Source: a virus
DNA length: 64,000 nt
IMG/VR virus record: IMGVR_UViG_3300045988_141926
Coordinates: 380-64,379 of that record
Strand: one strand, 5' to 3'
Part shown: positions 46,009 to 61,985 of the stretch, piece after piece
How the letters are laid out: each line of letters opens with the position of its first letter
Position numbering within the stretch: position 1 is the stretch's first letter
Made by a program: the position numbers and the translations under genes
Notes under the pieces: model-generated
What the model saw: the letters and a program-made list of their open reading frames with translations, nothing else
The model's database searches: none
Told to the model about the DNA's origin: nothing

Positions 46009-46122
46009 AAAAAGTTTGGAATGGGGGTTGACAACGCCCCCATTCCATGCTATAATAACATTACAAATTCAAGGTAGGGGAAACGATGGTAAGCCCCACC
46101 AATAGAAAAGGAGAAAAAAACT

Positions 46123-46656
46123 ATGAAAGCTCGCTATGCTAACCTCAGAAATTTCAACCGCACGGTCAAGACCTACAAGTGGCTGGTAGACCTGTTCGGA
46201 AACAAGGAGTTCACTTCCGAGGACTTCTCCAAGGCAAAGCACGACTACCGGCGGTACACCTACAATTCCCTGTCGTTCCTGCGGGATGAGGGTATCATCA
46301 AGGTGGTACGCACCGAACAGACCACCAAGGAAATCAAGCTCGACCCGTGGGACGCGGAAAGCTGGATGATTGACAAGAATGGCAACGCCCTGATGACCGA
46401 GTACAACTGGATGCGTTTGCCGGAAGTGGCACAGTCCGCTCTGCTGGCTCTGAATGGTCAGGACTTCCGCGTTGAGCGCAAGGACACCAAGACCGTGGAA
46501 AAGGAGAAGCTTATTTACACGGTCAATCCCGCTGGTATGTTGAACTGGCGCAAGGGCTATGGGCGTCTGTTGGCTATGAGAGCTGACGCGCTGGCGGGCG
46601 AAATCGTCAGACTGAACGAAAAGCGGGACGCATTCCTTGCTTGTCAGATGGACTAA
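46123..46656 (+). CDS. Hypothetical protein, 177 aa
   Basis: Conserved structured leader. Confidence 0.55.
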   Translation: MKARYANLRNFNRTVKTYKWLVDLFGNKEFTSEDFSKAKHDYRRYTYNSLSFLRDEGIIKVVRTEQTTKEIKLDPWDAESWMIDKNGNALMTEYNWMRLPEVAQSALLALNGQDFRVERKDTKTVEKEKLIYTVNPAGMLNWRKGYGRLLAMRADALAGEIVRLNEKRDAFLACQMD

Positions 46657-46689
46657 AAAAATGAGGGGATTTTCCCCTCATTTTTTGTG

Positions 46690-46885
46690 CATTTTTACCT
46701 ATTGACAAATGCGCCTGGGTGTGGTATAATGGCCGGCCGATTTCGCGCGTCTCGGCCGGAATTCACCATTATACACCCCGTCAGCAATTTTGTCAAGAGT
46801 TTTTTTACACAAATTTTTTTATTTATTTTTCCCGAAACTTGTGCAGTCTGACTATTGCAATCTGCGCTCACCTATGGTACAATAC
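46690..46885. promoter_or_regulatory. Convergent-promoter palindromic module, copy 4
   Basis: TTGACA-17-TATAAT, GC hairpin with an 8-bp stem, leftward attata-N17-tgtcaa, third promoter. Confidence 0.6.
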
Positions 46886-46985
46886 ATAATGTCAAGAGGG
46901 GACAGCAAGTTGCTTCTCGGGGGAGCCACGCTGGCGGGTGTGATAACTCGGTAACTGACCCGCATTTCCCCTCTTGACAATCTTC
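46886..46985 (+). ncRNA. Small non-coding transcript 1
   Basis: The 5' GUCAAGAGGGGA pairs with a 3' UCCCCUCUUGAC. The 3' arm is the next promoter's -35. Confidence 0.45.
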
Positions 46986-47007
46986 GTCAAAGGTGCTATA
47001 ATGGGTA

Positions 47008-47100
47008 GTGTCAAGAGGGGAACGGCACGGCAGATGCGTCTAATGTGTCGCTTGTGTAGACAGGTTTCAGAAATTTGAAAAAATTTCAAAAAACCTCTTG
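47008..47100 (+). ncRNA. Small non-coding transcript 2
   Basis: Same 5' motif. Closing stem caagagg/cctcttg. Confidence 0.45.
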
Positions 47101-47138
47101 ACAATCCCCAGCACCCGTGCTATAATTGATAATGTCAA

Positions 47139-47400
47139 GAGGGGAACAGCCCCACCCAAGAAATCCGCGGGTCGCGAACCGTGCGAGAGTAAAGGAAGTA
47201 AGCCCTATACCAGCGCAGTAAAGCCTGAGCATGGAGCGGAAAGTGAGCAATTTGTGAGCAAGGTACAGACCGGAACTTCTAACCGGACTGCGACGCAATA
47301 ACATGGCAATACTCTTATCCGTATTCCGGGGTTGTAAGTCGTTGTGAATACTTGTGGAGCGTTCCCCTGTTGGCACTATCAAAAAAAATCAAGAATTTTG
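47139..47400 (+). ncRNA. ~260-nt non-coding transcript 3
   Basis: Same 5' motif. 3' GUUCCCC complement, then an A-run. No SD-preceded ORF. Confidence 0.4.
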
Positions 47401-47495
47401 AAAAAAAGTCTTGACAATCCCAGCGCAAGCTGTTATAATAGATAATGTCAGGAGGGCAAAGCCCTCAAAACCAAATGGAGAAAGGAATTGATACT

Positions 47496-47876
47496 ATGGC
47501 TAACACTAACACCACCACCCGCAAGCCCACCAAGCGCGATAATTTCACCGCCCTGCTGAAACTGTCCGAGGTCAAGGCTGACCCCAAGCTGGTGGAGTTC
47601 ATCACCCACGAAATCGACCTGCTCGACCGCAAGAACACCGTGGACAAGAAGCCCACCAAGACCCAGCAGGAGAATGAGGTCATCAAGACCACTGTCCTGT
47701 CCGCTATGGAGCGCGACCGCCTGTACTCCATCAGTGAGATGCTCAAAGAGTTCCCTGTCTGCAAGGACATGAGCAATCAGAAGCTGTCCTCCCTCGTTCG
47801 GCAGATGGTGCTGGACAAGCAGGTGGAGCGCGTGGAGGATAAGCGCAAGGCGTTCTTCCGCAAGGTGAGCGAGTAA
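47496..47876 (+). CDS. Cassette gene A1, 126 aa
   Basis: ELLDRKNTVDKKPT motif. The mRNA has a 5' stem-loop. Confidence 0.55.
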   Translation: MANTNTTTRKPTKRDNFTALLKLSEVKADPKLVEFITHEIDLLDRKNTVDKKPTKTQQENEVIKTTVLSAMERDRLYSISEMLKEFPVCKDMSNQKLSSLVRQMVLDKQVERVEDKRKAFFRKVSE

Positions 47877-47929
47877 ACCGCCCAAGGGTGGGGAGAAATC
47901 CCCACCCTATCCCCGAAAGGAGTAAGCGC

Positions 47930-48286
47930 ATGAATGAGCGTATTGCCGACCTTATGCGAAAGCTGGATTGCACCGAAGCCGAAGCCAAGGATATTATTGT
48001 CCAAGATGCTATTATCGACAAGGGCGGCAATCCGTTTCCGCTGACCGAGGAACAGGAAAAGGCAAGCAAGAAAGCGCGTGGAGTAGGACGCCAGCCGACC
48101 GCATACAAGTTCGCACCAAGAGAAAGAAAGGCTAATCTCACGAAGCAGGGCATTATCACCTTGCTGACCGAGACACTGACCACATACGGCGCGACTGACC
48201 TGAACGTGAGCAACGCGGAGCGCGAATTTTTATTCACGCTTGATGGAACAAAATACAAGGTTGTGCTGTCGTGTCCGCGCAAGTGA
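47930..48286 (+). CDS. Cassette gene B1, 119 aa, basic
   Basis: PTAYKFAPRERKAN motif. Confidence 0.55.
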   Translation: MNERIADLMRKLDCTEAEAKDIIVQDAIIDKGGNPFPLTEEQEKASKKARGVGRQPTAYKFAPRERKANLTKQGIITLLTETLTTYGATDLNVSNAEREFLFTLDGTKYKVVLSCPRK

Positions 48287-48317
48287 GGGAGAGAAATCTC
48301 CCTCATTTTTTTTGTGT

Positions 48318-48520
48318 ATTTTGACTATTGACAAATCCGGGCGCGCGTGGTATAATTCGGTCGCGCGTCCACGTATGTGGCGCTCGAAATTTCTATTATA
48401 CACCCCACTGGCAATTTTGTCAAGCGTTTTTTTGCACAAATTTCAAAGATTGAAAATCCCGTTTTTTGTAGGTATTGCCTATTGTAATTCTCCTGTAATG
48501 TGTTATAATGATGATACTGA
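48318..48520. promoter_or_regulatory. Convergent-promoter palindromic module, copy 5
   Basis: Same architecture. Third promoter TTGTAA-16-TATAAT. Confidence 0.6.
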
Positions 48521-48535
48521 AAGGAGCGATGAACG

Positions 48536-49219
48536 ATGGAGTTTCCGAGAGTTCAGGATTTTATCCTGATTATCCAGCAGGCGGTATCTGAAAAGCCTGT
48601 GCGGGTCAGAAGTGCTGACAGACTATCCCGCGCTATCCACCGAGAATATCCTAATGTCAAGATAGCTACCAGCAACGGCGCAAGCAAGGAATGTCTGGTA
48701 TTCCCTGATTTGGGCTATGTTCTCAAATGGTCTACGGAGACGCGGGACGCAGAGCGCGAAGTGGCTGTGTATAAGAAAGCCGTAGAAGCAAACCTCGCGG
48801 ATTTTTTCCCCGCCACCGAGTTGGCTGGCTACATTGTTCCCCCGCGTAAGTGTGATGACCCTATCGCGTTCACCGCTCAACAGATTATCACCAACAGCGC
48901 ACACAAAATCATGTGGAATGAGGGCGGGATAAAAACTCGTCTCTTGCGTATCGCAAAGACTGTCCCCGACTGTCGCATCAAGCAGATTGAGCGGCAGTTC
49001 CGCAAAGCCGACCTCAATGGCTATGGGCGTGAGCTGGACGGACTGTGGGCGAAAGTTGCCGTTTCTATCTACGGCAAGCGCAAGGTTATCGCCCTCTGTG
49101 AGTTCGTTAAAAAGTATCACATCAACGACCTCCACGGCTCAAACATCGGCTACATTGGCATTTCTCCTGTTATCCTCGATTTCTCCGGCTATGGCGTCTG
49201 TGATGGTTTAGAGTTTTGA
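48536..49219 (+). CDS. Protein-kinase-like fold phosphotransferase, 227 aa
   Basis: HINDLHGSNIGY and ILDFSGYG, plus a lysine in YVLKW and a glutamate in EREVAVYKK. Confidence 0.45.
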   Translation: MEFPRVQDFILIIQQAVSEKPVRVRSADRLSRAIHREYPNVKIATSNGASKECLVFPDLGYVLKWSTETRDAEREVAVYKKAVEANLADFFPATELAGYIVPPRKCDDPIAFTAQQIITNSAHKIMWNEGGIKTRLLRIAKTVPDCRIKQIERQFRKADLNGYGRELDGLWAKVAVSIYGKRKVIALCEFVKKYHINDLHGSNIGYIGISPVILDFSGYGVCDGLEF

Positions 49220-49264
49220 AAAAAACTCTTGACAAACAGCCCCGCCTGTGCTATACTAACATCG

Positions 49265-49612
49265 TGAGGTGAGAAAAATGAAATGGCGATTGTATCGTCC
49301 CCCTTAGTAGTCAATCATAGTTTGATTAGATAGTTTAATGATTGATTATATTTATACCCCAGCCAAGATGGAGTTTAATAGAGTGTTTGTCCCACTCAAT
49401 AATTTCTTCTCAACCGCCATCTTGAACCCCTCGTTAGAAATTGGGACTGGGTACGAAGTTCTAACCACATTCACCGCGTGCCAAGAAAGACCATCTATGT
49501 GGGCATTGCGCCCGTCTGATTAGGTCTGCTGTGTAGAAGTGGGCTGGCTGTCCGGACGGCTGGCGAACATCAACAGGGGAACCAGCGTAGTAGCCAACTA
49601 CGCTGGTTTATT
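49265..49612 (+). ncRNA. ~340-nt non-coding transcript candidate
   Basis: TTGACA-17-TATACT upstream and a terminator at ~49575-49612. Only a 61-aa ORF with no SD. Confidence 0.35.
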
Positions 49613-49617
49613 TTTGT

Positions 49618-49810
49618 GTATTTTGCCTATTGACAAATGCGCTCAAATGTGGTATAATGGGTCGGGCGCTCACGAACGTGGCGCCCGAAATTTCCATTAT
49701 ACCACGCGGCACAAATTTTGTCAAGTGTTTTTTTGCACAAATTTTAGATGTTGAAAATCCCATTTTTTGTGAGTATTGACTATTGTAATTTGCCCAAGGG
49801 TGTGGTAATA
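49618..49810. promoter_or_regulatory. Convergent-promoter palindromic module, copy 6 (canonical)
   Basis: Perfect consensus on both strands: 12-bp arms gtggtataatgg/ccattataccac and hairpin cgggcgc-N11-gcgcccg. Third promoter TTGACT-18-TGgTAATAT. Confidence 0.65.
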
Positions 49811-49988
49811 TATAATTGTTCCAAGGGAGAGGGCGAGAGCCTCCGGCGGGGCGTGTACCTTAAAAAAATTCCACAAATCCGAAAAAAAGTCTTGACAAGG
49901 CTTCGGATATGTGTTAGAATATAGATGTTCCAAGAGGGAAACAACAATAAGGTGGGCGACACCTAAAAACGCAGAAAGGGTTGATACT

Positions 49989-50408
49989 ATGACTAACACT
50001 ACTTCCTCTGTGCGCCTGACCAAGCGCGACTACTTCACCGCCATTCTGTCCAAGGTGGATATGGACGCCACTTATGACATTCCCAAGGGCGATGCCACTG
50101 TCAAGGTTTCCGGTGCTGATGTGGCGGGCTTCCTGAACCACGAGCTGGAACTGCTCGACCGCAAGAACACCGTGGACAAGAAGCCCACCGCCACCCAGCT
50201 GGCAAACGAGGGTATCAAGGCTGACATCAAGGCGTTCCTGGACGCCCACAAGGGCGAGAAGTACACCGTCTCCGCTCTGATGAAGTCTGTCCCCGCTATC
50301 GCCGATGCGTCCAATCAGAAGGTTTCTTCTTTGGTGCGTCAGATGGTCATTGACGGTCTGGCAGAGCGTATCGAAGATAAGCGCAAGGCGTATTTCACCG
50401 CCAAGTGA
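49989..50408 (+). CDS. Cassette gene A2, 139 aa
   Basis: Shares ELLDRKNTVDKKPT and QKVSSLVRQMV with A1. Confidence 0.55.
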   Translation: MTNTTSSVRLTKRDYFTAILSKVDMDATYDIPKGDATVKVSGADVAGFLNHELELLDRKNTVDKKPTATQLANEGIKADIKAFLDAHKGEKYTVSALMKSVPAIADASNQKVSSLVRQMVIDGLAERIEDKRKAYFTAK

Positions 50409-50472
50409 GACAAGAGGGGGGGGAGATAACCTCTCCCCCTCTCTCCCCTAAAATCTGAAAAGGCGGTGTTTT

Positions 50473-50871
50473 ATGGCTGACATTTCCAAAACCGAATGGC
50501 TGAAAAACGCTATGGCGAAAATGGGCTGGACTGCCGATGAAGCGGAAGCCGTGTGGAACTCTGACCGAGAAATCGACAAGGGTAAGAAACAGGATTTTGA
50601 CCTGTCGAAAGAACAGCTTAAAATCGCCCAAAAATTCGCCAAGACTGGCACACGCAAGACCCCCACCGCATACAAATTCACCACAAGGGAACGCAAGGCA
50701 AATCCCACAAAAGCGGCTATTATCGCTGAATTGGCAACATTTTTGACCGAAAATAGCGAAAATGCCTGCGAAAATGTGGAAATTACCAACAAAGAGCGTC
50801 AAATTGCGTTCAAAATCGGTGAAAACTCCTATGAACTGACGCTTGTGCAGAAGCGCAAGCCGAAAAGTTGA
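50473..50871 (+). CDS. Cassette gene B2, 132 aa
   Basis: Shares PTAYKF-RERKAN with B1. Confidence 0.55.
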   Translation: MADISKTEWLKNAMAKMGWTADEAEAVWNSDREIDKGKKQDFDLSKEQLKIAQKFAKTGTRKTPTAYKFTTRERKANPTKAAIIAELATFLTENSENACENVEITNKERQIAFKIGENSYELTLVQKRKPKS

Positions 50872-50921
50872 GAAAATGGGGGAGAAATCCCCCATTTTCC
50901 CCGGAAATCGAGGAAAAAAGT

Positions 50922-51266
50922 GTGAAAAACAAGGAATTTTTGTATGTTGGACACTATTATGATGAAAATGGCGTCTACATTCTGAAAATAGGCACGACTA
51001 ACGACTTAAAGCGCAGACAGCGAGAGCATACACGAAACTACAAGAAATCGCCTGTTTACCGTCTACCGAAAACTGGCAAGTTCATTTACGATTTTTCGCT
51101 ACCGCTCTCCAAGTACAATACTCTACGCTACGAGGACAAAAACCGTGAACGCTGGCAAAAACTGGGATACGGCGAGTTTGTGAGAAATGACAGATTTGCG
51201 TGTCCTGTGAAGCCGAAATCTGTTGAAATTACCATTCGTCGAACTTACCAAATCGCTCTCGATTGA
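50922..51266 (+). CDS. Small GIY-YIG domain protein (~115 aa, GTG start)
   Basis: FLYVGHYYDENGVYILKIGTTNDLKRRQREH. Confidence 0.5.
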   Translation: MKNKEFLYVGHYYDENGVYILKIGTTNDLKRRQREHTRNYKKSPVYRLPKTGKFIYDFSLPLSKYNTLRYEDKNRERWQKLGYGEFVRNDRFACPVKPKSVEITIRRTYQIALD

Positions 51267-51289
51267 GGGCGATTTTTTTTTATTTAATT

Positions 51290-51440
51290 TGACTATTGAC
51301 AACGCCCTCTGACTGTGGTATAATGGGTCGGGCGCTCACGGATGTGGCGCCCGGCATTTTTGTCAATACACATTTTCAACAATTTTTCCGGCGAAAGTTT
51401 GTATAAATTGACTATTGCATTTTGTCCCGAAATGCGCTAT
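51290..51440. promoter_or_regulatory. Degenerate copy of the convergent-promoter module (copy 7)
   Basis: TTGACA-17-TATAAT and a hairpin. The 3' arm is deleted. Confidence 0.45.
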
Positions 51441-51491
51441 ACTATAAACAATCTGAGGGAGCTGGAACCCACCAACAGCACGGAGGCATCT

Positions 51492-52100
51492 ATGAATAAG
51501 AGCCAGTTTTTTGACCACGAAATCGAGTTCATTCAGTCCGAGGATTTGCGCTCATTCGTGCGCTATTACTTCGATTGTATCGTTCCCGACTATTTCTGGA
51601 CTATCGGCGCGAGTTCTTCCGGCAAGTTCCATCCGGCTATGAGCCAAGGCGAGGGCGGTTTGGTACGCCACACTAAGGCGGTTGCGTGGTTTTGTGAGGA
51701 ATTGCTCCGCATGAGCCAGTGGGCGTATCTCACTGACGAGCGCAAGGACTACGCAAGAGTTGCCTGTCTGCTCCACGATACAGCCAAGTATGGTTTACAC
51801 GAGTTCGACAAGGAGTTGTACCCCAAGCACGGGGAAATGGCGGCTGACCAAGTACGCCGTTCGTGGCTGGTCTTTTTCGAGAGCGACTGCCCCTATGAGT
51901 TGACGCAAGCCATCAAGTCCCACATGGGTCAATGGACTACCGACAAGGCGAACAGACCTTTCACTCCTATTGATAGGTTGGTACACATGGCTGACTATGT
52001 GGCAAGCCGAGCGTTTATCGACATTCCGGCAATCAACGCTGACTATAACGACAAGGCGGAGTTAAACCAGATTGTGCCTGACCTGCCGTGGGAAGATTAA
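51492..52100 (+). CDS. HD-domain phosphohydrolase, 203 aa
   Basis: H...HD...D motifs. Confidence 0.55.
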   Translation: MNKSQFFDHEIEFIQSEDLRSFVRYYFDCIVPDYFWTIGASSSGKFHPAMSQGEGGLVRHTKAVAWFCEELLRMSQWAYLTDERKDYARVACLLHDTAKYGLHEFDKELYPKHGEMAADQVRRSWLVFFESDCPYELTQAIKSHMGQWTTDKANRPFTPIDRLVHMADYVASRAFIDIPAINADYNDKAELNQIVPDLPWED

Positions 52101-52134
52101 TTTGTTAAGGGTGGAGAAATCCACCCTTAATTTT

Positions 52135-52440
52135 TGTTCATTTTACCTATTGACAAATTGGGCCAGGTGTGGTATACTAAAAGGGGAGGTACAACGGGCC
52201 GAGCGCGGGCGCTGCGGTCCGAATTCCCGATCTGTACCCCCATATGGAAAATTTTCCGTAATTCTAGCGGCCTTCATATGCGCCCATATTTTCCCAAAAC
52301 CCGAGGCACCGCTCGGTACCCATATGCCGCCCGGTTTGACATAAAAAAAAATTTATGTTATAATGATAAAAAAAACCATTTTTTTTCTCACTTGACTTTT
52401 AAAAAAATTTTTTGTATAATATGTATATACAAAATGAAAA
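52135..52440. promoter_or_regulatory. Divergent copy of the convergent-promoter module (copy 8) with a 3x CATATG repeat, followed by two AT-rich promoters
   Basis: TTGACA-17-TATACT, then a GC-rich insert in place of the palindrome, then AT-rich promoters before the 52453 gene. Confidence 0.4.
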
Positions 52441-52452
52441 GAGGTTATTTTA

Positions 52453-52827
52453 ATGAATAAGAACGATATTCTGACGCGCTTAATGAATGGCGAGAGCGCT
52501 GAGGATATTGCTAAGGAAATGACTGCAATGCTGAATGACGCCACTAAGGCATATGCTGACCAGAAGAAGGACAAGGAAAAGATGGCCCGAGCGGAAGCGG
52601 TTGCCGATGCTATCAACGACTATGCGGCCTATATTGGCTACAAGGGTGCAGAGTTGAAGGGCGAGGACGTCATTAAGATGATGGACAGTTTCTTGAAGTT
52701 CTATAAAGACCTTCACAATTTCAAGATTGAGATTCCCGGTTTCCGTTTTGAGACGAGAACTGATAAGCCCACCAAGAAGGGCAAAACCGTAGATGAAATC
52801 CTCAACGACTGGATTTCTCGCATTTAA
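52453..52827 (+). CDS. Hypothetical protein, 124 aa
   Basis: SD AAGAGG. A long hairpin terminator lies at 52838-52900. Confidence 0.55.
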   Translation: MNKNDILTRLMNGESAEDIAKEMTAMLNDATKAYADQKKDKEKMARAEAVADAINDYAAYIGYKGAELKGEDVIKMMDSFLKFYKDLHNFKIEIPGFRFETRTDKPTKKGKTVDEILNDWISRI

Positions 52828-52837
52828 TTTCGAATAA

Positions 52838-52900
52838 CGTGTCGGCCCAGGTATTTTTCATTTGGGAAATTGGCGATTAGAATACCTGGGCTCGACGTTT
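52838..52900 (+). terminator. Long (~15-bp stem) hairpin terminator
   Basis: gtcggcccaggtattt...aatacctgggctcgac followed by TTTTTT. Confidence 0.55.
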
Positions 52901-53214
52901 TTTGGAAAGGGTATCTTGAAAAATTCAGAGGATGACGATAACGATGAAATTGAGTGATGAGTTGGTACCGAGCGGGGGCACCAAACTTCCATTATTTTCA
53001 TCATTCTTTTCATCCCATCATCATTCTACCATAATCATTTTGTTATTAAGAAAAAATATTATAAGGTTTCATTATTCGTTATTTACAACTATATTCATCA
53101 AACCCCGCTAATAGGTTTATTTAATCTAGTTTTATGGAGATAAAACAATAATCAAAAGACTTCGGACTCAAAAAAAAGCATCATAAGTTAAAAAGCATCA
53201 TAAGTCAAAAAAAA

Positions 53215-53250
53215 ATGGAGTGGTTTATCGCCACTCCATTTTTTTTATTC
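53215..53250. terminator. Bidirectional terminator
   Basis: aaaaaaaaatggagtggtttatcgccactccatttttttt. Confidence 0.5.
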
Positions 53251-53628
53251 CTTAAACATCAAATCACTTAAAATGTCATTATATGCTGATTCCAGGAGAG
53301 AATCAACGAGAGTTGAATCAACATTAAGGTTAATATCATTCTTGCCACTCTCATCACCCTCAGGACACACTAGTAGCCTGCCCACCGGCGAGGTTCGCTC
53401 TTGCTTTTTCCAAGGTGATTCCCATTTACGATTTAAACTACCATCTTCACTGATATTCGCAATCCAATAGCCATCAACAATGAGAGCATTATTACAATCA
53501 TACAAGACATAAACATTATCGCCCAAATCATCATACTTAGAGCGCACAATCACATCTCTACCTTTATAATTGCCAACTCTCTTACCATATTTATTTTTTA
53601 ATACATCATAACTGAATTCATTTTTCAT
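53245..53628 (-). CDS. Hypothetical protein, 127 aa
   Basis: ORF ending in TAA. Confidence 0.45.
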   Translation of the reverse strand: MKNEFSYDVLKNKYGKRVGNYKGRDVIVRSKYDDLGDNVYVLYDCNNALIVDGYWIANISEDGSLNRKWESPWKKQERTSPVGRLLVCPEGDESGKNDINLNVDSTLVDSLLESAYNDILSDLMFKE

Positions 53629-53805
53629 TTTTCATTTCATTTTTTCATTTCATTTTTCAAAATATCTACTCCCACCGGAGTTTTTCAAATGAAATTCCAA
53701 AATGGCACCTCCTACTTTTATATATAAATATTATATAATAATTTTATATATAAATCAAGTGCCATAATATTGCCCCAGGGTACGGGAACGAAGTCCCTGT
53801 CTGTC

Positions 53806-54286
53806 ATTTATTATAAATCTTATAAAATATATTATTTAATGCATCTCCTGCTTCTTCTGCACTACATCCCATAGCATTTACTTGTTTACTCAAATCCAAT
53901 AGAGAATCAAATATAGAGACATAACTATTATCATAAATATTATTAGGCTAAGCATAATCTGTCGTATCACTATTATTTATATAATCATTATCTTGATGAT
54001 ATCCAGTAGAACGAAAATCTACATTTAACTTTTGATTGCCCTTTCCGCCATAAACAACACCCTCGGGAGGTGCGAAGGGGCGGAGCTCCTCTGCGAAACA
54101 AATCTTTACTGGTTTATAGTTGTTAGGTAATACAAAATAAATTGTATCATCTTTTAAATATGTTTCTACTTTAATTGCCTTTTCAGGTACTTCTTCTTTA
54201 CAGCATCTTTGAAAATGCTTTACATACTTACTATTTACTTCCACAGGAATACTATATTCTCCATTTAATCCACTATGATAACCCAT
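53806..54286 (-). CDS. Hypothetical protein (~160 aa) with one in-frame TAG
   Basis: The fragment ORF 53948-54286 continues through a TAG to a TGA at ~53806. Confidence 0.4.
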
Positions 54287-54465
54287 TTTTATTTCTCCTT
54301 TTGTTCTTTATTTTTGTTCTCGTCTCTACGATTTTTACATCGGGAAAATTCCCAATGGGATTAAATAAGCCGGCGTCAGCCGGATTATTTAAGCCCACCC
54401 TCTATTGCCACAAACCTATTTCAACCCTCTATTACTATTTAATAGGTTTCTAAAAATTGACCACT

Positions 54466-54550
54466 TTTATAGAAAATTTTGACCACTTTATCTAACACCA
54501 TCAGAAAATTTTGACCACTTTTATCAGAAAATTTTGACCACTTTATTTAG
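54466..54550. repeat. Iteron array: 4x AAAATTTTGACCACTTT(T)AT
   Basis: Direct repeats with about 20-bp periodicity. Confidence 0.7.
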
Positions 54551-54797
54551 GGAGTTCGTTCTTCACCCACAAAAATTCAAGACACGTCTTATTATCTTCT
54601 AATATTTTTAATCTATAATCTAATAATCCTAAACGTTTAAGAATATCAATAGTATCATCAATTATAGCATTATTAGATGTAGTAGTTGTAGCAATACCAA
54701 TATATTCTTTAATCTATCTAAATGTAGCGATAAATGGCTAAAAACTACTAGTATAGTATTTATTAAACAAATAAATATATATATTTATACTATTCTT

Positions 54798-55172
54798 CTA
54801 AAATACATTCATCATTTTTAATAATGTATTATATTCAATTAAATTAGCTTCTGACCCATCTAATACTGTTAAATAATAATATTCATCGCCTTCATCACTA
54901 ACAAGATTTGAATCAATTAAATAAGAAAAATATTTCGCAATAGTTTTACGAGACATAGCTTTTTCAATAGTTCCATCACTTAATTCACGAGTAAAATCAC
55001 GCTCAATACTAGCCCATTTAACTTTCTTTTTCTCTATTCTACGGCGTGAAGTATTTACATTTTCTCGTTCAGAATTACATTGAAGCCAGGCATATAATAA
55101 ATCGCAATAATCCTTTTCTCGCACAATAGATGTAGTTGATGGCATTTGACGAGAGTTCTTTTTAATAACCAT
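54798..55172 (-). CDS. Small basic protein (~124 aa) flanked by iterons; candidate replication initiator or regulator
   Basis: SD GGAGG. Iteron arrays lie on both sides. Confidence 0.45.
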   Translation of the reverse strand: MVIKKNSRQMPSTTSIVREKDYCDLLYAWLQCNSERENVNTSRRRIEKKKVKWASIERDFTRELSDGTIEKAMSRKTIAKYFSYLIDSNLVSDEGDEYYYLTVLDGSEANLIEYNTLLKMMNVF

Positions 55173-55235
55173 AAATACCAACCTCCTTCCATAGAACAAT
55201 AAAAATTACGCCTTTTCTATTGAATGGTCCTGACC

Positions 55236-55385
55236 AGAATTTTTTAACCACTTTTATAGAAAATTTTGACCATTTTTATAGAAAAAATTACTCTTTTTTA
55301 TAGAAAATTTTGACCACTTTTATAGAAATTTTTGGACACTTTTATAGAAAATTTTGACCACTTTTATATCAAATGACCATTTTTG
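55236..55385. repeat. Iteron array: about 6x TTTTGACCACTTTTATAGAAAA
   Basis: Same unit as 54466-54550, with about 22-bp periodicity. Confidence 0.7.
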
Positions 55386-55467
55386 TCCGACACGGTAAGA
55401 CGCGGAAACGAAATTTCGTTTATCTCAACATTTTTATTCTAAATTTCGCTAACCGCTCTTTAATTGA

Positions 55468-55510
55468 TTTTTAATAAAAATTTTTATATAATATATATAT
55501 AAACAATAAG
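55468..55510 (+). promoter_or_regulatory. Class-II AT-rich conserved promoter, copy 1
   Basis: ttttaataaaaatttttatataatatatatataaacaataag. Confidence 0.45.
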
Positions 55511-55558
55511 AAATGAATTAACAACAGTTCAACTACAACTAATCAGGAGGTAATAAAT

Positions 55559-56014
55559 ATGGATGCTGGCTTTTATCGTTTCGACGTTCATTTCTTCGAT
55601 GGCGCTGAACAGAATGCCCACGGTTTCGTATATGCGAAGAATTACGCGAATGCCGTTGAGAAGGTTTGTGATATGGTTGATGATGAAGACATCGCGGATA
55701 TCAAGATTGAAGGTATGGAGCCCAGTGAAGTCCTCCTGATGCCCGACTGGATTGCCGACAAAATTACCAAGTATGACTACTTTTCCAGCGACTACGCGCG
55801 CGAGGACAAAAATGTTCAATTTAAGAATGTTAATTCTGTGCTGTCCGCAGAAAAGACTGATGAAGTTATGAAGGAGATTGAGAAGCATCTGACCAGTGGC
55901 AACTATGGCCCCTCCGACAAACTCCCTCTGTCTCAGCAGTCTATCGAATATATCAATGAGTGCGTGGCAAATGGTCTCCCTATCCAGATGCCAGACCATC
56001 GTGGTGAAATCTAA
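55559..56014 (+). CDS. Hypothetical protein, 151 aa
   Basis: SD AGGAGG. Confidence 0.55.
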   Translation: MDAGFYRFDVHFFDGAEQNAHGFVYAKNYANAVEKVCDMVDDEDIADIKIEGMEPSEVLLMPDWIADKITKYDYFSSDYAREDKNVQFKNVNSVLSAEKTDEVMKEIEKHLTSGNYGPSDKLPLSQQSIEYINECVANGLPIQMPDHRGEI

Positions 56015-56466
56015 TGTGGCAACGAATCTGTAAAGAGTGCGCCTATTTCGATGATATGCGCTGTAAGATTAGCGGACAACCCGCTATCTCTCACAATATC
56101 GCTTGCGCCTCATTTAGTAGCCAACGCTACGAGTGCGATATTTGCCACCGTCAAATTCACCATACTGAGGTAATCTATGATAGCAAAAGTAATAAGATTG
56201 TTTGTTCAGATTGCTGTAATCGTTTGTCTACGTGTGATAATTGCCATAATGGGAATATCTGCCTTTTTGAAACAGACCCATCACCACTTCCGAAACAAAT
56301 ACAAAAACAAATCCGTCAGGGAAATATGTTCGGACAAACAATCATAAAAAATCCCGAGAGGGTTCGACAGATTTGCGAAGTCAAATGTTCTTGTTGGGAC
56401 AAAGAAAACCAACAATGTTTAAAAACTACTTCCCATTATTGTCCCAACATTCAGGAGGTTATATGA
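56014..56466 (+). CDS. Cys-rich metal-binding protein, 150 aa
   Basis: More than 20 Cys residues in CxxC pairs. Confidence 0.5.
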   Translation: MWQRICKECAYFDDMRCKISGQPAISHNIACASFSSQRYECDICHRQIHHTEVIYDSKSNKIVCSDCCNRLSTCDNCHNGNICLFETDPSPLPKQIQKQIRQGNMFGQTIIKNPERVRQICEVKCSCWDKENQQCLKTTSHYCPNIQEVI

Positions 56467-56708
56467 TATTTACAGTAATGCATAACGGCTCTCCTTACTT
56501 CACCGTCGAGGCCAGTGAAATCATTGGTATTGCCAAAGTCTATAATGGCGAGGTAAATTTCAGCACAGTAATGCTTCTCAAAAATGGCGGTTCCTATAAA
56601 TTTCCTTTTCCCACAAAAGATGAACAACTCAACAAGATTCGCCAGAATTGGCTTCTTGCTCGGACTAAAACAAATTTTCCTACGCCTGATGTAATCATTG
56701 ATGTGTGA
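56463..56708 (+). CDS. Hypothetical protein, 81 aa
   Basis: SD GGAGG. ATGA overlap. Confidence 0.5.
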   Translation: MIFTVMHNGSPYFTVEASEIIGIAKVYNGEVNFSTVMLLKNGGSYKFPFPTKDEQLNKIRQNWLLARTKTNFPTPDVIIDV

Positions 56709-56758
56709 GCACGTTGGGCAAAACTATTAAATTTAACAAAACTGACCAGGAGGAGCGT

Positions 56759-56956
56759 ATGAAACGTAAGGGCTACGACATCTACATCGGCAAACGTGGA
56801 GCGATTTATTACCTCGAAACTATCGAGGAAACTAATCCTCTCGTCGCAGATACCTATGCCTATGATAAGGCACTCGACAAGTTTGGCGATATTCCAGAAG
56901 TAGTATGGAAAGCAATCCCGGCAGTAATTTGGATACCGGAGGATGGAAGAGAATGA
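56759..56956 (+). CDS. Hypothetical protein, 65 aa
   Basis: SD AGGAGG. Confidence 0.5.
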   Translation: MKRKGYDIYIGKRGAIYYLETIEETNPLVADTYAYDKALDKFGDIPEVVWKAIPAVIWIPEDGRE

Positions 56957-57171
56957 CACTATTTAAAATTAACCTTGAAGACTGTGGCTGTTTCTGTATT
57001 GACCTTGATACCATTAGTTCATTCTATATCGGCTTCGGCAATAAACTGAAAATTCTCCCTATCGGAGGGTCTGACTACATTGCCCCTATTACGATTTGCC
57101 CGCAGGATGCTAAACGTCTTGTTGAAGCCTGGGAAAATAGACAGGAGCGCATTAACAATGGAACTCTATAA
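56953..57171 (+). CDS. Hypothetical protein, 72 aa
   Basis: ATGA overlap. Confidence 0.45.
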   Translation: MTLFKINLEDCGCFCIDLDTISSFYIGFGNKLKILPIGGSDYIAPITICPQDAKRLVEAWENRQERINNGTL

Positions 57172-57532
57172 TCTCTATTCATATATTGAAGTGGTCGATG
57201 ACCCTGATACATTTGTATATTTATGGTCGGCTCACTACGACAATGCCGAAGCCGCCCAATCAGATGCTTGGAACGAGACTTGTCTCCGTTATGAAGAGAA
57301 TGCCAAAGAATTCCAGTTGCCTGACTACGATGAAATGATTGAGCGACTCCAAGAGTTCGAGCGGTCAAGAGGTAGGCCAGATACAATAGATAAGAAAATG
57401 ATGGACCACGCAATTGAGTTAGCCATTGAAGCGCGTGATGATTGCATTGATTATTACGTAGTACCCGCTCGACTTGATGAACGAGATTACGAAGACCTCG
57501 TAGTAATAGATGCTGATGAATATAATCTATAA
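57158..57532 (+). CDS. Acidic hypothetical protein, 124 aa
   Basis: ORF. Confidence 0.5.
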   Translation: MELYNLYSYIEVVDDPDTFVYLWSAHYDNAEAAQSDAWNETCLRYEENAKEFQLPDYDEMIERLQEFERSRGRPDTIDKKMMDHAIELAIEARDDCIDYYVVPARLDERDYEDLVVIDADEYNL

Positions 57533-57620
57533 TTAAATTTGCCACGATTTTCACCACCTTATATTTCTATTATCATTATACCAAATAATTTTGGAAAAAT
57601 CAATACAAGGAGAATTGAAA

Positions 57621-57902
57621 ATGGCTGTTAAAATCCGCAAAGCGTTTACCATTATGCCCGATTCCCTCAATGATGACCAGCGCTATATTTTCCACGGCAT
57701 CGACCGCGCAGAAGCCGAAGAGATTTGTCTCGCATTTGTCGAGGAGCTCTTGGATGATGATATCCAGATGTGCCAGCGCGCTGAACACTATCCTGAGATT
57801 ACGTGGTGCCCTGATTGGTGGAAGGATGTTGAGCCTGACCTTCGTCTCTGTGAATACGATTCATTCGTATACGAAACCTCAATTTACGATTTTGGACACT
57901 AA
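57621..57902 (+). CDS. Hypothetical protein, 93 aa
   Basis: SD AAGGAG. Terminator at 57905-57940. Confidence 0.5.
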   Translation: MAVKIRKAFTIMPDSLNDDQRYIFHGIDRAEAEEICLAFVEELLDDDIQMCQRAEHYPEITWCPDWWKDVEPDLRLCEYDSFVYETSIYDFGH

Positions 57903-57943
57903 TATATAAGAGTATTTGGCGATGCCAAATACTCTTATTTGAT

Positions 57944-57979
57944 TTTTTTATAAATTTATAATATAATATATATATAAGA
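57944..57979 (+). promoter_or_regulatory. Class-II AT-rich conserved promoter, copy 2
   Basis: tttttttataaatttataatataatatatatataag. Confidence 0.45.
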
Positions 57980-58001
57980 TGAAGAAAGGAAATGATACAA
58001 A

Positions 58002-58244
58002 ATGAATGATATTGTAATGCGTTTCAGAACTGAGCACGGCCAGACTATTGAGATGACTATGAATGACCTCAAAGATGCATACGACGAGTATCGTTTCCTG
58101 ACTAAGCGTGAATATATTCTTGAAAACTATCCTGAGTCCGAGGCTTGCGTGGACAGAATCGCCGCTCGTGCCATCGAACTCGAAGACAGTTATCATTATC
58201 GGGAAGACGACGCAATCGAACAGGCGTTCGATGAGATTATGTGA
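58002..58244 (+). CDS. Hypothetical protein, 80 aa
   Basis: ORF. Confidence 0.5.
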   Translation: MNDIVMRFRTEHGQTIEMTMNDLKDAYDEYRFLTKREYILENYPESEACVDRIAARAIELEDSYHYREDDAIEQAFDEIM

Positions 58245-58256
58245 GGAGGATGCGCT

Positions 58257-58487
58257 ATGAAGTGGCATTTGTTTTCTGAGAAGCGGCCTGAGATTGGCAC
58301 TGATGTTCTCATCTGTTTCGAGCCGGGCAATCCTTTTGCCTGTGATGTGTGTAGCCTCGAAGAGGAAGGCGAAGGCCACTATGTTTGGTGGCGCCTTGAA
58401 AAAAGTTATCCCGTTGATGATACTGATTATTGGGCTGAGATTCCGATGCCTCAGCTGAGAATTCCCGCATATAAGGAGGAGGATTAA
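58257..58487 (+). CDS. DUF551-like phage protein, 76 aa
   Basis: KWH...W...IPMP pattern. Confidence 0.35.
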   Translation: MKWHLFSEKRPEIGTDVLICFEPGNPFACDVCSLEEEGEGHYVWWRLEKSYPVDDTDYWAEIPMPQLRIPAYKEED

Positions 58488-58489
58488 CT

Positions 58490-59233
58490 ATGATTGAAGG
58501 TCTCTACCCGCCGTTCCAGCACTGGGGCGCGTCCGGTACCACGTGGATTCTGAGCGATACACATTTTAATGACCCTGACCTCATTCACGCCTATGTTGAC
58601 CGCCCCTCCGCAGAAGAGCAGGTGAAGCGCATCAATGCTAAGTGCGGTCGTGCGGATACGCTGATTATCCTCGGCGATGTTGGCGATATCTCCTATGTGC
58701 GTCAGTTGCGCGCCAAGTATAAGATTCTCGTGATGGGCAACCACGACTCTGGCGCATCCAACTATCAGCGTCAGATTTTCAGACAGAAGTTTGATAAAGG
58801 CCTGTTCCAGAAGCACGAGGCATTGGACGAGATGAAGCGTCTCTATCCTGATTGCGCTTATTCTATCACTGATAGTTATGATTATCTCGATAATTTTCCC
58901 TGTTGGGAGGTTCGCGCTGATAATAAACTTTTCGACCAGGTGTTCTCTGGTGTTGTAGTTATTGGAGAGAAATTGATGCTCTCTCACGAGCCTATTAAGG
59001 GATGCGATTGGTGTATGAATATCCACGGCCACGATCATTCTCGCTCTCATAAAAATGATAAATATCATTTCAACGTGTGCGCTGATGTGATTGGCTACGA
59101 GCCCATCAACTTCAATAAGTGGATGAAGGAAGGCCATCTCGCGCCCATCGTATCCATTCACCGCGACACCATTGACAACGCAACGGCTCGCGCACGCAAA
59201 CGAGGGTATAGATTGGGGAGGAAACCCCAGTGA
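58490..59233 (+). CDS. Calcineurin-like metallophosphoesterase (Ser/Thr phosphatase type), 247 aa
   Basis: SDTHF, GDVGD, GNHD, GHDH. Confidence 0.7.
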   Translation: MIEGLYPPFQHWGASGTTWILSDTHFNDPDLIHAYVDRPSAEEQVKRINAKCGRADTLIILGDVGDISYVRQLRAKYKILVMGNHDSGASNYQRQIFRQKFDKGLFQKHEALDEMKRLYPDCAYSITDSYDYLDNFPCWEVRADNKLFDQVFSGVVVIGEKLMLSHEPIKGCDWCMNIHGHDHSRSHKNDKYHFNVCADVIGYEPINFNKWMKEGHLAPIVSIHRDTIDNATARARKRGYRLGRKPQ

Positions 59234-59402
59234 TACTACGCCTTATTCTCCTTATGGTTCTTGGAGGCTCTATTTGTATAGGGATTGAGACAATGTGGCG
59301 CGCGTTTAAAAATGGGAAATGGCCTCTTGGAATAGTAGTAATTTTTGAGGTTATAGGATTTATTCTTATGACTATATTCTTTGTGAAGGAACAGGTGCTA
59401 TA
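59220..59402 (+). CDS. Small membrane protein (~60 aa, GTG start)
   Basis: Hydrophobic. Confidence 0.3.
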
Positions 59403-59579
59403 ATGATTTTTAATATTTTGAACCAACTTCTTCTGTTTATCTTCGGTCTTCTGTTGTTCGCTATTATGCTGAATAATATCGAAGAGCCTTATTTCCATAG
59501 TAAATGGGGCATCATTCTTCCGTTCGTTGGCGCTCTCGCTTGCGCGGCCTGTGTCATTTACAATTTGTTTCAGGGGTGA
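59403..59579 (+). CDS. Small membrane protein, 58 aa
   Basis: Hydrophobic. Confidence 0.35.
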   Translation: MIFNILNQLLLFIFGLLLFAIMLNNIEEPYFHSKWGIILPFVGALACAACVIYNLFQG

Positions 59580-59584
59580 TTACT

Positions 59585-59779
59585 ATGTCTGTTTTTAGCG
59601 TTATTACATTTATTGTTTGTATAATTCTGATTTTTACTTATATGTATCAATCTTATCATATCGTTAAATATTACCGTGAGCAGGGTAGATGGGGCGTTTG
59701 GGCGATTTTGAACATTTTATCTATCCTAATTATCGTGGAGGCCACTGAAATTATGGCGGAGGTAGTACATCTATGCTGA
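59585..59779 (+). CDS. Small membrane protein, 64 aa
   Basis: Hydrophobic. Confidence 0.4.
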   Translation: MSVFSVITFIVCIILIFTYMYQSYHIVKYYREQGRWGVWAILNILSILIIVEATEIMAEVVHLC

Positions 59780-60177
59780 TTACTATTTTGTTTGTAATTG
59801 TATTTATCCTCAGCGCATCTCTATGCTACAAATTCCGCAATCACGATGTTTCTATGGTTCTTCTTTTGCTTGCGGTTATCTGTGCGGTCGGTCTTATTGT
59901 GTGCGGGGCTATGTGTGCCTGTACGCCATATGACTCTGACCTCCGCACCCAAGACGCAATGGATAAGGAGCGTATGCTTCTTGAATTGCGTATTGATGAT
60001 GACTACTGGCGCAAAGACGCACGCCTGACCGCAGAACTTGTCCACGATGTAGACGAATACAATGAATTGGTTATCTCGATGCGCAAGACCTATAACAGTG
60101 AATGGACTTCTTGGTTTGGTCGCTCTTGGATGGCTGACCTAACTACCGTAGAATTTCCAGAAGGAGGATGGAAATGA
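59773..60177 (+). CDS. Membrane-anchored protein, 134 aa (paralog A)
   Basis: Transmembrane region plus a soluble domain. Confidence 0.5.
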   Translation: MLITILFVIVFILSASLCYKFRNHDVSMVLLLLAVICAVGLIVCGAMCACTPYDSDLRTQDAMDKERMLLELRIDDDYWRKDARLTAELVHDVDEYNELVISMRKTYNSEWTSWFGRSWMADLTTVEFPEGGWK

Positions 60178-60566
60178 TTCTCTTACTGATACCTTTTGTA
60201 GTAATGATAATTTGTATCATTCTATCTTGTAAGATTCAAGATGTTGATACAAATGAATGTATCTGTGTTGTTGGAGGAGTTGCTCTTTGTATTGTTCTTG
60301 CGTTAGGCTTTGTCTGTTTCCTTATGCGCGTTTGCGATTATGACAAGTTTGAGATTGATGCGGAACGCGCAAATATTGTTCGATATATTGAACGGTATGG
60401 CGATGACGCAGAGACTAATGAAGCTACCTACAACACTATTTATAACAAGGTTTACAATTTTAATTATCGAGTATATAGATGTCAGAGAACTCGGTCAAAT
60501 CCTTTCATTAGCTGGTTCAAAGCCGGATGGTGGATGGAGATTGAGCCGATAGATTGGGCGCCATAA
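60168..60566 (+). CDS. Membrane-anchored protein, 132 aa (tandem paralog B)
   Basis: Same architecture as the 59773 product. Confidence 0.5.
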   Translation: MEMILLLIPFVVMIICIILSCKIQDVDTNECICVVGGVALCIVLALGFVCFLMRVCDYDKFEIDAERANIVRYIERYGDDAETNEATYNTIYNKVYNFNYRVYRCQRTRSNPFISWFKAGWWMEIEPIDWAP

Positions 60567-60577
60567 GGAGGTATAAT

Positions 60578-60862
60578 ATGGATTCTTTGTTTGATTTGAT
60601 GTTCGGCATTATGAATAATGATTATTCTAAGGCTGACAAGGCTGGCCACGACACTGTTGGCGACTACACCATCGACACTTGCGACACCGTGGACCAGGGC
60701 TATGAGACCGCTATGTGGAAGGGCGATGGCGATATTATCATCGTTGAGCGCTACCCCGATAAGGAGCGCGCTGAGGCTGGCCACACGAAGTGGTGTGAGT
60801 TCGCTAAGACGAACCCTGAGCACGTGTATAGTGTTCAGATGGATGAGCACGTCAATTTCTAA
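60578..60862 (+). CDS. Hypothetical protein, 94 aa
   Basis: SD GGAGGT. Terminator at 60870-60912. Confidence 0.5.
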   Translation: MDSLFDLMFGIMNNDYSKADKAGHDTVGDYTIDTCDTVDQGYETAMWKGDGDIIIVERYPDKERAEAGHTKWCEFAKTNPEHVYSVQMDEHVNF

Positions 60863-60910
60863 ATAACTAAGTCAATGGAGGGTTTTACCAAACGTAAAAT
60901 CCTCCATTGA

Positions 60911-60947
60911 TTTTTTTTAAAATTTATTATATAATATATATATAAGG
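60911..60947 (+). promoter_or_regulatory. Class-II AT-rich conserved promoter, copy 3
   Basis: ttttttttaaaatttattatataatatatatataagg. Confidence 0.45.
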
Positions 60948-60962
60948 TAAAAGAGAAAGGAA

Positions 60963-61652
60963 TTGATGTTTATGATGATTTTTCCCACCTTACATATTGA
61001 GTTTGAAAAGTGGAAATTTAATAAGGAGTATGGAGTTTGGGTTTCTAACTTCGGCAACTTCAAGGACATTCATAAGCGTCCTATTCCTAAGAAAATCTTC
61101 CAGCAAAATGGTTATGTGTCTGTGAAAACCAAGCACGGCAATCGTATGGCGCATCGCTTGGTTATGTATACGTGGTGCCCCATTGAAGACCGCGAGGCGT
61201 TCACTGTTGACCACATTGACCACAATAAACGTAATAACCGCGTTGACAATCTGGAATGGGTCAGCCAGGCTGAGAATCTGATTCGAGCCCAGGATGACAT
61301 TGTGGTGAGTGCTGTTCCTACTATTAATAATGCGGGCGCCGAACCCGCCGGTCGGGACACTGGGAAAATTCTGGAAGAGTGCGACAATACTCTGGCCAAG
61401 TGGCTTGCCACTACCACGGACACCACTTGCCGTTCCTTTATCGTTCAGGAGGGTATCACTCTTGATACTGTTTTTACCAACACTGATGGTTTTAAGGGTA
61501 CGGCGATGGAGGCTATTGACTGGCTCCAAAAGCATAACTCTAAGGTCAGCACTACCGAAGAGAAGTTCTTCTTCAAACTGTGCAATAGCATCCGTATGGA
61601 CGGTTTTATGTATTCTCGTAAGTGGAATTTTTTGAGAGGAGTTAAACAATGA
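60963..61652 (+). CDS. HNH homing endonuclease with a NUMOD4-like N-terminus, 229 aa
   Basis: WVSNFGNF, HRLVMYTW, VDHIDHNKRNNRVDNLEWVSQAEN. Confidence 0.7.
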   Translation: MMFMMIFPTLHIEFEKWKFNKEYGVWVSNFGNFKDIHKRPIPKKIFQQNGYVSVKTKHGNRMAHRLVMYTWCPIEDREAFTVDHIDHNKRNNRVDNLEWVSQAENLIRAQDDIVVSAVPTINNAGAEPAGRDTGKILEECDNTLAKWLATTTDTTCRSFIVQEGITLDTVFTNTDGFKGTAMEAIDWLQKHNSKVSTTEEKFFFKLCNSIRMDGFMYSRKWNFLRGVKQ

Positions 61653-61945
61653 GAGTAGCAATTTATGCGACTGAACCTTATTATGGTGGGCTCCACGGAT
61701 ATTTCAACTGCGGTATCTACCACATTGATATGTTTAGTGAGGCTGATGAAATTGGTCATTATCTGTGTGATGAACTGATTGATAGTTATACTACACTGAC
61801 CGATCTCTACGAAGATGGCGAACGTGAGTATGATTACGCAATCTATGAAATCCCTAATGCGTTCGATGATATCGACGATGACCAGCTCGACGCCGACCTC
61901 TATGACTACGGTTTGAGCGGTTTTATCAAGAAATATTCTCTCTAA
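61649..61945 (+). CDS. Acidic hypothetical protein, 98 aa
   Basis: ATGA overlap. Confidence 0.5.
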   Translation: MRVAIYATEPYYGGLHGYFNCGIYHIDMFSEADEIGHYLCDELIDSYTTLTDLYEDGEREYDYAIYEIPNAFDDIDDDQLDADLYDYGLSGFIKKYSL

Positions 61946-61948
61946 TTG

Positions 61949-61985
61949 ATTTTTTTAAAAATTTATAATATAATATATATATAAG
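61949..61985 (+). promoter_or_regulatory. Class-II AT-rich conserved promoter, copy 4
   Basis: tttttttaaaaatttataatataatatatatataag. Confidence 0.45.

Follow-up and report, generated by a model that had tools for sequence, protein, structure and literature searches.

The stretch of DNA analysed here (the window) comprises 64,000 nucleotides (nt) of a viral record in IMG/VR (IMGVR_UViG_3300045988_141926, positions 380 to 64,379). Two plus-strand open reading frames (ORFs) were studied. The ORF at 48536..49219 starts with ATG, stops with TGA, and encodes a protein of 227 amino acids (aa) with the layout of a minimal protein-kinase-like (PKL) enzyme. The ORF at 58490..59233 encodes a calcineurin-like metallophosphoesterase of 247 aa. 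An earlier note on this DNA had proposed that the two act as a kinase and phosphatase pair. We found that the 48536 protein belongs to a family with a complete and invariant kinase catalytic set, and that the pairing is not supported.

The catalytic-loop and Mg-binding motifs that the earlier note had reported in this short ORF are present as stated: HINDLHGSNIGY occupies residues 195-206 of the 48536 protein and LDFSGYG residues 214-220. In an alignment of 143 family members, extending down to 22% identity to the 48536 protein, G48, K64, D198, N203, and D215 were the sole invariant (100%) columns. In the PKL superfamily such a set is read as the Gly of the Gly-loop, the β3 Lys, the αC Glu, the D-x4-N catalytic loop, and the DFG Asp 12 residues further on. 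The β3 Lys and αC Glu are matched by K64, in a predicted strand at 61-66, and by E75 (99% conserved), in a predicted helix at 71-84. D198 and N203 make up the D-x4-N loop, and D215, of the Mg-binding type, lies 12 residues past N203 and opens a DFG-type motif that here reads D-F/Y-S/C/A-G (F/Y216, 98%; G218, 94%). Conservation of at least 90% was also observed for K51, V62, E75, Y79, A82, F91, Q115, W171, G180, L199, H200, G205, P211, and G218. Conservation of the catalytic Lys and Asp in homologs had been set beforehand as one test of the kinase-like reading, and both K64 and D198 were present in every sequence of the alignment. The 'HxxD' motif described earlier stands with respect to its Asp (D198) but not to its first His: H195 is His in just 11% of the family, and the conserved His is H200 (95%), two residues past D198. 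A chance occurrence of the motifs was ruled out by their family-wide invariance and by the predicted fold described below; a pseudokinase was likewise ruled out, every catalytic residue being invariant in the family.

No significant match to the 48536 protein was detected in Pfam, PHROGs, NCBIfam, PADLOC, or the PDB sequences (phmmer). A word-indexed homology search recovered close relatives only (72-97% identity), all unnamed or 'hypothetical'. The profile of these close relatives was searched exhaustively against 1.84 billion cluster representatives; 598 proteins were found at E<=1e-3, 97 of these at E<=1e-10. Nearly all of them are 195-230 aa long, and the matches extend to about profile position 219. 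Sub-threshold matches of the family all fell within the PKL superfamily, none being significant. They included ribulosamine-3-kinase in a PDB profile search (E 0.064, aligned across the catalytic loop and DFG) and, in a Pfam scan of family members, DUF4135, Kinase-PolyVal, and Fructosamin_kin, all below significance. The family does not have the character of eukaryotic-type protein kinases (ePKs): Pfam Pkinase gave no match to the 48536 protein or family members, and the activation segment (DFG...APE), helices αF-αI, and the GxGxxG motif (there is one invariant Gly only) are absent, and the His of HRD is not conserved.

The fold was predicted with AlphaFold2 (AF2). A model based on 17 close relatives had a predicted local distance difference test score (pLDDT) of 58.8, with values below 50 in the motif-bearing C-terminal third, and was discarded. 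With the 143-sequence alignment, all five models reached pLDDT 93.6-94.7 and a predicted TM score (pTM) of 0.90. The predicted chain begins with N-terminal helices (residues 6-19, 21-25, and 27-37), followed by strands β1-β3 of the N-lobe (44-47, 51-56, and 61-66, the last carrying K64) with a G48-A-S-K51 loop, helix αC (71-84, carrying E75), and strands β4-β5 (94-100 and 110-116). Four C-lobe helices (132-140, 145-156, 169-179, and 181-193) lead to the catalytic loop I196-N-D198-L-H200-x-x-N203, a β-hairpin (204-207 and 210-213), D215-F-S-G218, and the end of the protein at residue 227. The model thus has the bilobal PKL fold, with a five-stranded N-lobe plus αC, a helical C-lobe, and catalytic and Mg loops at the cleft. 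Foldseek comparison with the PDB also placed the model in the kinase fold, as the earlier note had anticipated: the top 50 matches were all PKL proteins, with modest scores (best E 2.6e-3, TM 0.3-0.39). Judged from the model, the protein is highly divergent and no single cellular subfamily is closest to it. Matches in the viral structure library BFVD were much better than in the PDB. They comprised four uncharacterised phage proteins of 209-248 aa (E 4e-11 to 4e-7, TM up to 0.62) and, as the best annotated entries, T7-type 'protein kinases' from Enterobacter phage IME278 (E 1.6e-4, TM 0.54), Pantoea phage SK1, and Klebsiella phage NahiliMali. The T7-type kinases in BFVD gave TM values of 0.43-0.54 to the 48536 model.

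The most unusual property of the family is its C-terminus, which lies a median of 7 residues past the DFG Asp (interquartile range 6-10; median protein length 215 aa); the 48536 protein stops 12 residues after D215. Because the chain ends about 7-12 residues after this Asp, the parts that follow DFG in canonical kinases, namely the activation segment and helices αEF, αF, αG, αH, and αI, are all absent. In the model the C-lobe is made of the four helices located before the catalytic loop. To our knowledge, a chain ending at the DFG motif is the shortest layout with a full kinase catalytic set.

A family member was identified on 34 IMG/VR viral contigs (30-198 kb), often close to the contig end, and all 34 were confirmed by the family hidden Markov model (HMM; E 1e-27 to 1e-75). 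Three copies each were found on two contigs, L034 (6376-10120) and L035 (3-10129); on L034 two copies are directly adjacent and the third lies 1.7 kb further. The presence of multiple copies suggests a diversified substrate range in these uncultivated phages. A pattern from a 19-sequence alignment, scanned against 185,579 species genomes of bacteria and archaea, gave only four matches, on contigs of 5-20 kb in metagenome-assembled genomes of Ca. Egerieisoma, Eubacteriales, Lachnospiraceae, and one Treponema. Searches of the 50,697 deposited phage genomes in INPHARED gave no match, either by tblastn with the 48536 protein and three divergent members or by megablast with 14 kb of the window. For ten divergent clusters the sources were Logan, ENA, or JGI only, and the one name attached to any of them was 'hypothetical protein'. 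No paper describing the family was found. The family, phage-only and without annotation, is large, with at least 598 clusters at 50% identity.

The kinase-like gene is a stand-alone transcription unit. It is isolated by the plus-strand intrinsic terminator of the preceding gene (48281..48308), which was found in a terminator scan and consists of a 12-bp stem and a T-run. Two plus-strand promoters follow: P1 (48328..48356), a perfect TTGACA-N17-TGgTATAAT with an extended -10 TG, and the gene-proximal P2 (48482..48509), TTGTAA-N16-TGtTATAAT, with a 10/12 match and the TG extension. A plus-strand Shine-Dalgarno sequence, AAAGGAG, was read from the sequence at 48520..48526, 9 nt before the ATG, and the next perfect-type promoter lies directly after the stop codon. 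The window contains 26 perfect TTGACA-N17-TATAAT sites against a chance expectation of 0.04; 24 are located within 37.3-52.4 kb (37344-52364); sites of this class are mostly TG-extended and have GC-rich spacers. A second class, TTGATT-N17-TATAAT, is represented by seven sites against 0.09 expected, all at 53.2-62.0 kb (53278-61974), with AT-rich spacers of the type TTGATTTTTTT-AAAAATTTAT-ATATAAT. The two classes may correspond to immediate-early and delayed or middle promoters.

The earlier description of the enzyme as phage-encoded is borne out by a portal, a large terminase, and a virion structural protein in the window. On the minus strand at 1-33,557 (29% GC), the longest open frame grows from 380 to 2,763 aa when TAG is read as a sense codon, and tightly packed genes appear, with up to 56 in-frame TAGs (in an ORF of 2,757 aa at 8494-16767). 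With TAG translated as Gln, the genes of this minus-strand module at 27478-28941, 29519-31252, and 18614-19690 were recognised as a portal (phrog_2739, 8e-82), a large terminase (PHROG matches), and a virion structural protein, respectively; none of the three is recognised unless TAG is read as sense. The right half, 34-64 kb, uses the standard code at about 45-50% GC. The gap of 16-20 points in GC between the two halves is striking. Recoding of TAG in phage late genes is reportedly a known kind of phenomenon, said to have been described by Borges et al. Rfam and tRNA scans of the window gave no match, and no suppressor tRNA was found within it. Close relatives of both ORFs occur on metagenomic contigs of about 195-201 kb. 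Recoding has been proposed as a means of keeping late expression apart from early expression (bioRxiv 10.1101/2021.08.26.457843). In agreement with that idea, the promoters and code usage suggest that the kinase-like region is immediate-early, its transcription relying on a host RNA polymerase of the sigma-70 type and its translation on host ribosomes without modification, the code of the region being the standard one.

An intergenic module of about 200 nt is repeated in the same part of the window (46680-46870, 48306-48510, 49608-49811, 51274-51420, and 52128-52178). It has a perfect forward promoter with a GC-rich hairpin (GGGCGC...GCGCCC) right behind the -10, an opposite-strand perfect promoter facing it about 40 bp away (46768-46796, 48395-48423, and 49696-49724), and then a second forward promoter. 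Rfam gave no match for the module, which could represent face-to-face promoters, an operator, or a small antisense RNA. Within about 800 nt at 46657-47444 there are four perfect promoters (46702, 46974, 47098, and 47411), and behind each of them stands a conserved ...TAATGTCAAGAGGGGAAC... element. No ORF in this region is convincing, and its products may be very short peptides or early non-coding RNAs.

The 58490 protein passed the Pfam Metallophos model (PF00149; 36 bits against a cut-off of 21.5) and matched phrog_547, 'phosphoesterase', at 2.4e-22. The calcineurin-like signatures noted earlier were recovered as five motifs, D23-x-H25, G62-D63, G83-N84-H85, H166, and GHxH (about 179-183), whose metal and phosphate residues are invariant in 17 relatives. 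A total of 1,024 homologs was found, the named ones being 'calcineurin-like phosphoesterase family protein', and a conserved insert of about 70 residues lies between motifs III and IV of the family. The protein had also been called Ser/Thr-phosphatase-type, and this label was not upheld. Phosphatases of the PPP type carry the signature GDxHG ... GDxVDRG ... GNHE; the 58490 protein instead has SDTHF, GDVGD, and GNHD. Its family profile matched a single PDB entry, Aquifex aq_1665 (1xm7, E 3.9e-5), and no PPP enzyme (lambda-PP, PP1, or calcineurin) even at E<=10. NCBIfam gave weak YfcE and PdeM matches only, and tblastn against the INPHARED phages gave no match. The nearest solved relative is therefore the aq_1665-like branch of PF00149 (phrog_547), with which all five metal and phosphate motifs are common. 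Read from its sequence, the protein is a genuine calcineurin-like metallophosphoesterase and not of the PPP type. Its transcription unit extends from a terminator at 57906-57938 and a plus-strand class-B promoter at 57939..57967 (TTGATT-N17-TATAAT, AT-rich spacer) to a terminator at 60869-60913. A run of five small ORFs (57-134 aa) at 59230-60566, encoding strongly hydrophobic membrane-type proteins, overlaps the end of the metallophosphoesterase gene, and several pairs of these ORFs overlap at their start and stop codons.

The view that the two enzymes form a functional pair, timing the phosphorylation of shared targets, was examined against their arrangement and distribution. The two genes occur together in this phage clade of about 200 kb and on one contig that is more distant; on the latter (UViG ...145614) the spacing, counted across the contig ends, is again about 10-12 kb. 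Their different promoter classes would be compatible with sequential expression. However, the genes lie 9.3 kb apart in different transcription units, with a minus-strand block at 53.2-55.2 kb between them, and in distant loci a phosphoesterase was never found within +/-10 kb of the kinase gene. Only two viral contigs were common to both families, out of 34 kinase-bearing and 79 phosphoesterase-bearing contigs; these scans were pattern-based and some contigs are incomplete. The kinase pattern detects 67% of family members, so that, for an obligate pair, about 53 of the 79 phosphoesterase contigs should have given a detection (binomial P ~5e-35). The phosphoesterase, moreover, is not a PPP-type enzyme, and its only solved relative by profile is aq_1665. 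Nothing links the substrates of the two enzymes, and we regard a functional pair as highly improbable. The best explanation is that the 58490 protein is a separate, generic binuclear-metal phosphoesterase of another operon and not a dedicated antagonist of the kinase, a phosphoprotein being one of many possible substrates. The attractive story of a kinase and phosphatase pair is thus corrected as unsupported.

Among the neighbours of the kinase-like gene only one protein family is strongly recurrent. It is represented by a small protein, p143 (47445..47876, plus strand), and its paralog p165 (49911..50408, plus strand), downstream of the kinase-like gene; 17 of the 32 viral loci have a member of the family at a distance of up to 5 kb on either side, often immediately downstream. 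The C-terminal half of p143 and p165 weakly resembles winged-helix regulators (Lrp/AsnC-type, E 0.008; AdcR, 0.012; Lrs14, MarR, and T4 MotA, weaker); this sequence likeness is a lead, not a finding. The 143/165-aa family is frequently tandem-duplicated in other phages. In the window its members belong to paralogous two-gene cassettes (47445-48286 and 49911-50871, encoding 143/165-aa and 132/132-aa proteins) on either side of the kinase-like gene, with 73-81% DNA identity in parts. Further downstream, at 1.6-2.1 kb from the kinase-like gene and in the territory of the same promoter class, are genes encoding an HD-domain phosphohydrolase (51342-52100; PF01966, 3e-10; phrog_5889 of unknown function, 5e-43) and a T5orf172-domain protein (50868-51266). 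The T5orf172 gene recurs near kinase genes at 10 loci, the HD gene at 5.

Given the conservation and the predicted fold, the 48536 protein very probably has PKL phosphotransferase activity. If it works as solved kinases do, ATP would be bound between the five-stranded N-lobe and the small helical C-lobe, its phosphates being held by the G48-A-S-K51 loop and the K64-E75 pair; D198 would act as the catalytic base, and Mg2+ would be bound by N203 and D215. In canonical kinases, helices αF-αI serve regulation and substrate docking. Since there is no activation loop to regulate, the enzyme would be constitutively active, with an open and probably permissive substrate face, as in the T7 kinase domain. 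It would most likely be made by the host RNA polymerase and ribosomes immediately after infection, given the terminator, the tandem near-consensus sigma-70 promoters, the strong ribosome-binding site, and the standard code in a phage with TAG-recoded late genes. The most likely targets would be host or early phage proteins, phosphorylated in take-over or counter-defence. On balance we lean toward a protein kinase used for these purposes, with considerably less assurance than for the phosphotransferase activity itself.

With the fold and chemistry unchanged, the substrate could be a small molecule: antibiotics, sugars, lipids, nucleotides, and immune second messengers are candidates, the precedents being the aminoglycoside phosphotransferases (APH) and the choline/ethanolamine or fructosamine kinases. 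We consider this rather unlikely. APH, choline kinase (ChoK), and fructosamine kinase (FN3K) have large helical substrate-binding subdomains after DFG that are absent here, and no small-molecule pathway genes are conserved beside the kinase-like gene. The kinase of phage T7 (T7K, the product of gene 0.7), a proven protein kinase, has the same D-x-H-x-x-N-I loop and truncated layout, and its relatives are the closest annotated viral structural match. Another chemistry, or none, is less probable still: AMPylation or NMPylation (as in SelO and NiRAN), glutamylation (SidJ), an ATPase switch, or a nucleotide-binding scaffold acting with the winged-helix-like neighbour. It is well established that the PKL folds of SelO, SidJ, and NiRAN, with full 'kinase' residues, carry out other transfers; nidovirus replicase entries, which contain NiRAN, were among the weak BFVD matches, and the recurrence of the neighbour family in 17 of 32 loci would fit a scaffold. 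However, the β3 Lys, the αC Glu, D-x4-N, and the DFG Asp are intact and invariant, which is the pattern of a phosphotransferase; SelO-type enzymes are known not to have the catalytic-loop Asp in the canonical position, and the NiRAN-type matches were far weaker than those to kinases.

Neither Pfam, PHROGs, and NCBIfam nor BLAST searches of the 50,697 deposited phage genomes reveal the family, yet it is abundant in metagenomic phages, and a survey based on PHROG HMMs would have missed it. An active enzyme would imply that early promiscuous phosphorylation is a far more general phage strategy than T7-like phages suggest, and structural and engineering studies would gain a natural kinase scaffold of very small size. 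More speculatively, T7K-like 'bare' kinases could exist in two lineages, the family being the second of them and either independent or separated in the very distant past. Its members would then be phage-restricted, constitutively active, promiscuous early kinases for host take-over and defence disarming in large gut Firmicutes phages, sometimes present as two or three tandem paralogs and maybe acting with the winged-helix-like neighbour. We put this forward tentatively and think it doubtful in its full form.

Few families of phage kinases had been recognised by 2021: T7 gp0.7, 933W Stk, the CotH-type, and the HipA-type (PMC8008677). According to a report from 2026, pervasive phosphorylation by the T7 kinase disarms diverse bacterial defences, and homologues of this kinase were found almost exclusively in phages (PMC13645617). 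Its kinase domain comprises residues 1-242 and has DPV at 213-215 in place of DFG, and A0A7L7SMK1 has been named as a homologue (PMC13645617); the same protein is among the BFVD matches of the 48536 model. The analogy with T7 gp0.7 that the earlier note had drawn is supported, the T7-type kinases being the nearest annotated structural neighbours with a layout in common. The T7K sequence was taken from gene 0.7 in V01146 for a comparison at the sequence level. The motif regions read ...FDMHSGNIMF...PYITDPVSF... in T7K and ...INDLHxxNIGY...PVILDFSGY... in the kinase family. With hhalign, the family was aligned to T7K or to a 22-member T7K alignment across the catalytic/DFG segment (E 6e-4 to 3e-3) with a probability of just 10-28%; the family-versus-family comparison gave 28%, spanning 54 columns only. 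A low-stringency alignment was co-linear over the whole domain, pairing G48, K64, W171, D198, H200, N203, P211, and D215 of the 48536 protein with G76, K93, W173, D195, H197, N200, P209, and D213 of T7K. None of the T7K PHROGs (2828, 15752, and 18305) matched the 48536 protein or any of five divergent members at E<=10; phrog_4301, whose function is unknown, showed weak similarity to a few divergent members. The Pfam copy searched does not include PF27024, the T7K family, and T7K itself matched nothing in it. Filing the 48536 protein as a T7K homologue was rejected because hhalign support is weak for the single sequence as well as for the family.

Small or atypical kinases of cellular origin, namely Bud32/PRPK, RIO1/RIO2, and the Shigella effector OspG, keep helices after DFG, whereas the 48536 family ends there, and no sequence-level relationship to them was found in Pfam or PDB profile searches. 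The APH, choline kinase, and fructosamine kinase group has a C-terminal helical substrate-binding subdomain that the 48536 family is without; Pfam APH and Fructosamin_kin gave no significant match to the family.

In both T7K and the 48536 family the kinase domain is minimal, at about 230 aa, has N-terminal helices, and contains a D-[LM]-H-x-x-N-I-x-[FY] loop and an Mg-binding Asp at 213-215, almost at the C-terminal edge of the domain. Both are phage-restricted early genes read by host RNA polymerase, the timing of the 48536 gene being suggested by its promoters. They differ at the DFG position, which is D-F/Y-S-G in the 48536 family and D-P-V in T7K, and in the distance from the β3 Lys to the catalytic Asp, which is about 30 residues longer in the 48536 family. 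The C-terminal host shut-off domain of T7K is missing from the 48536 family. The carriers differ as well: Autographiviridae for T7K, and for the 48536 family large gut phages that probably infect Firmicutes. The 48536 proteins are thus a distinct family, for which homology to T7K beyond common PKL ancestry is not established; by layout and motif style, T7K is their closest characterised relative. Phage kinases such as T7K were already known, and what is new is a family with extreme truncation at the DFG motif.

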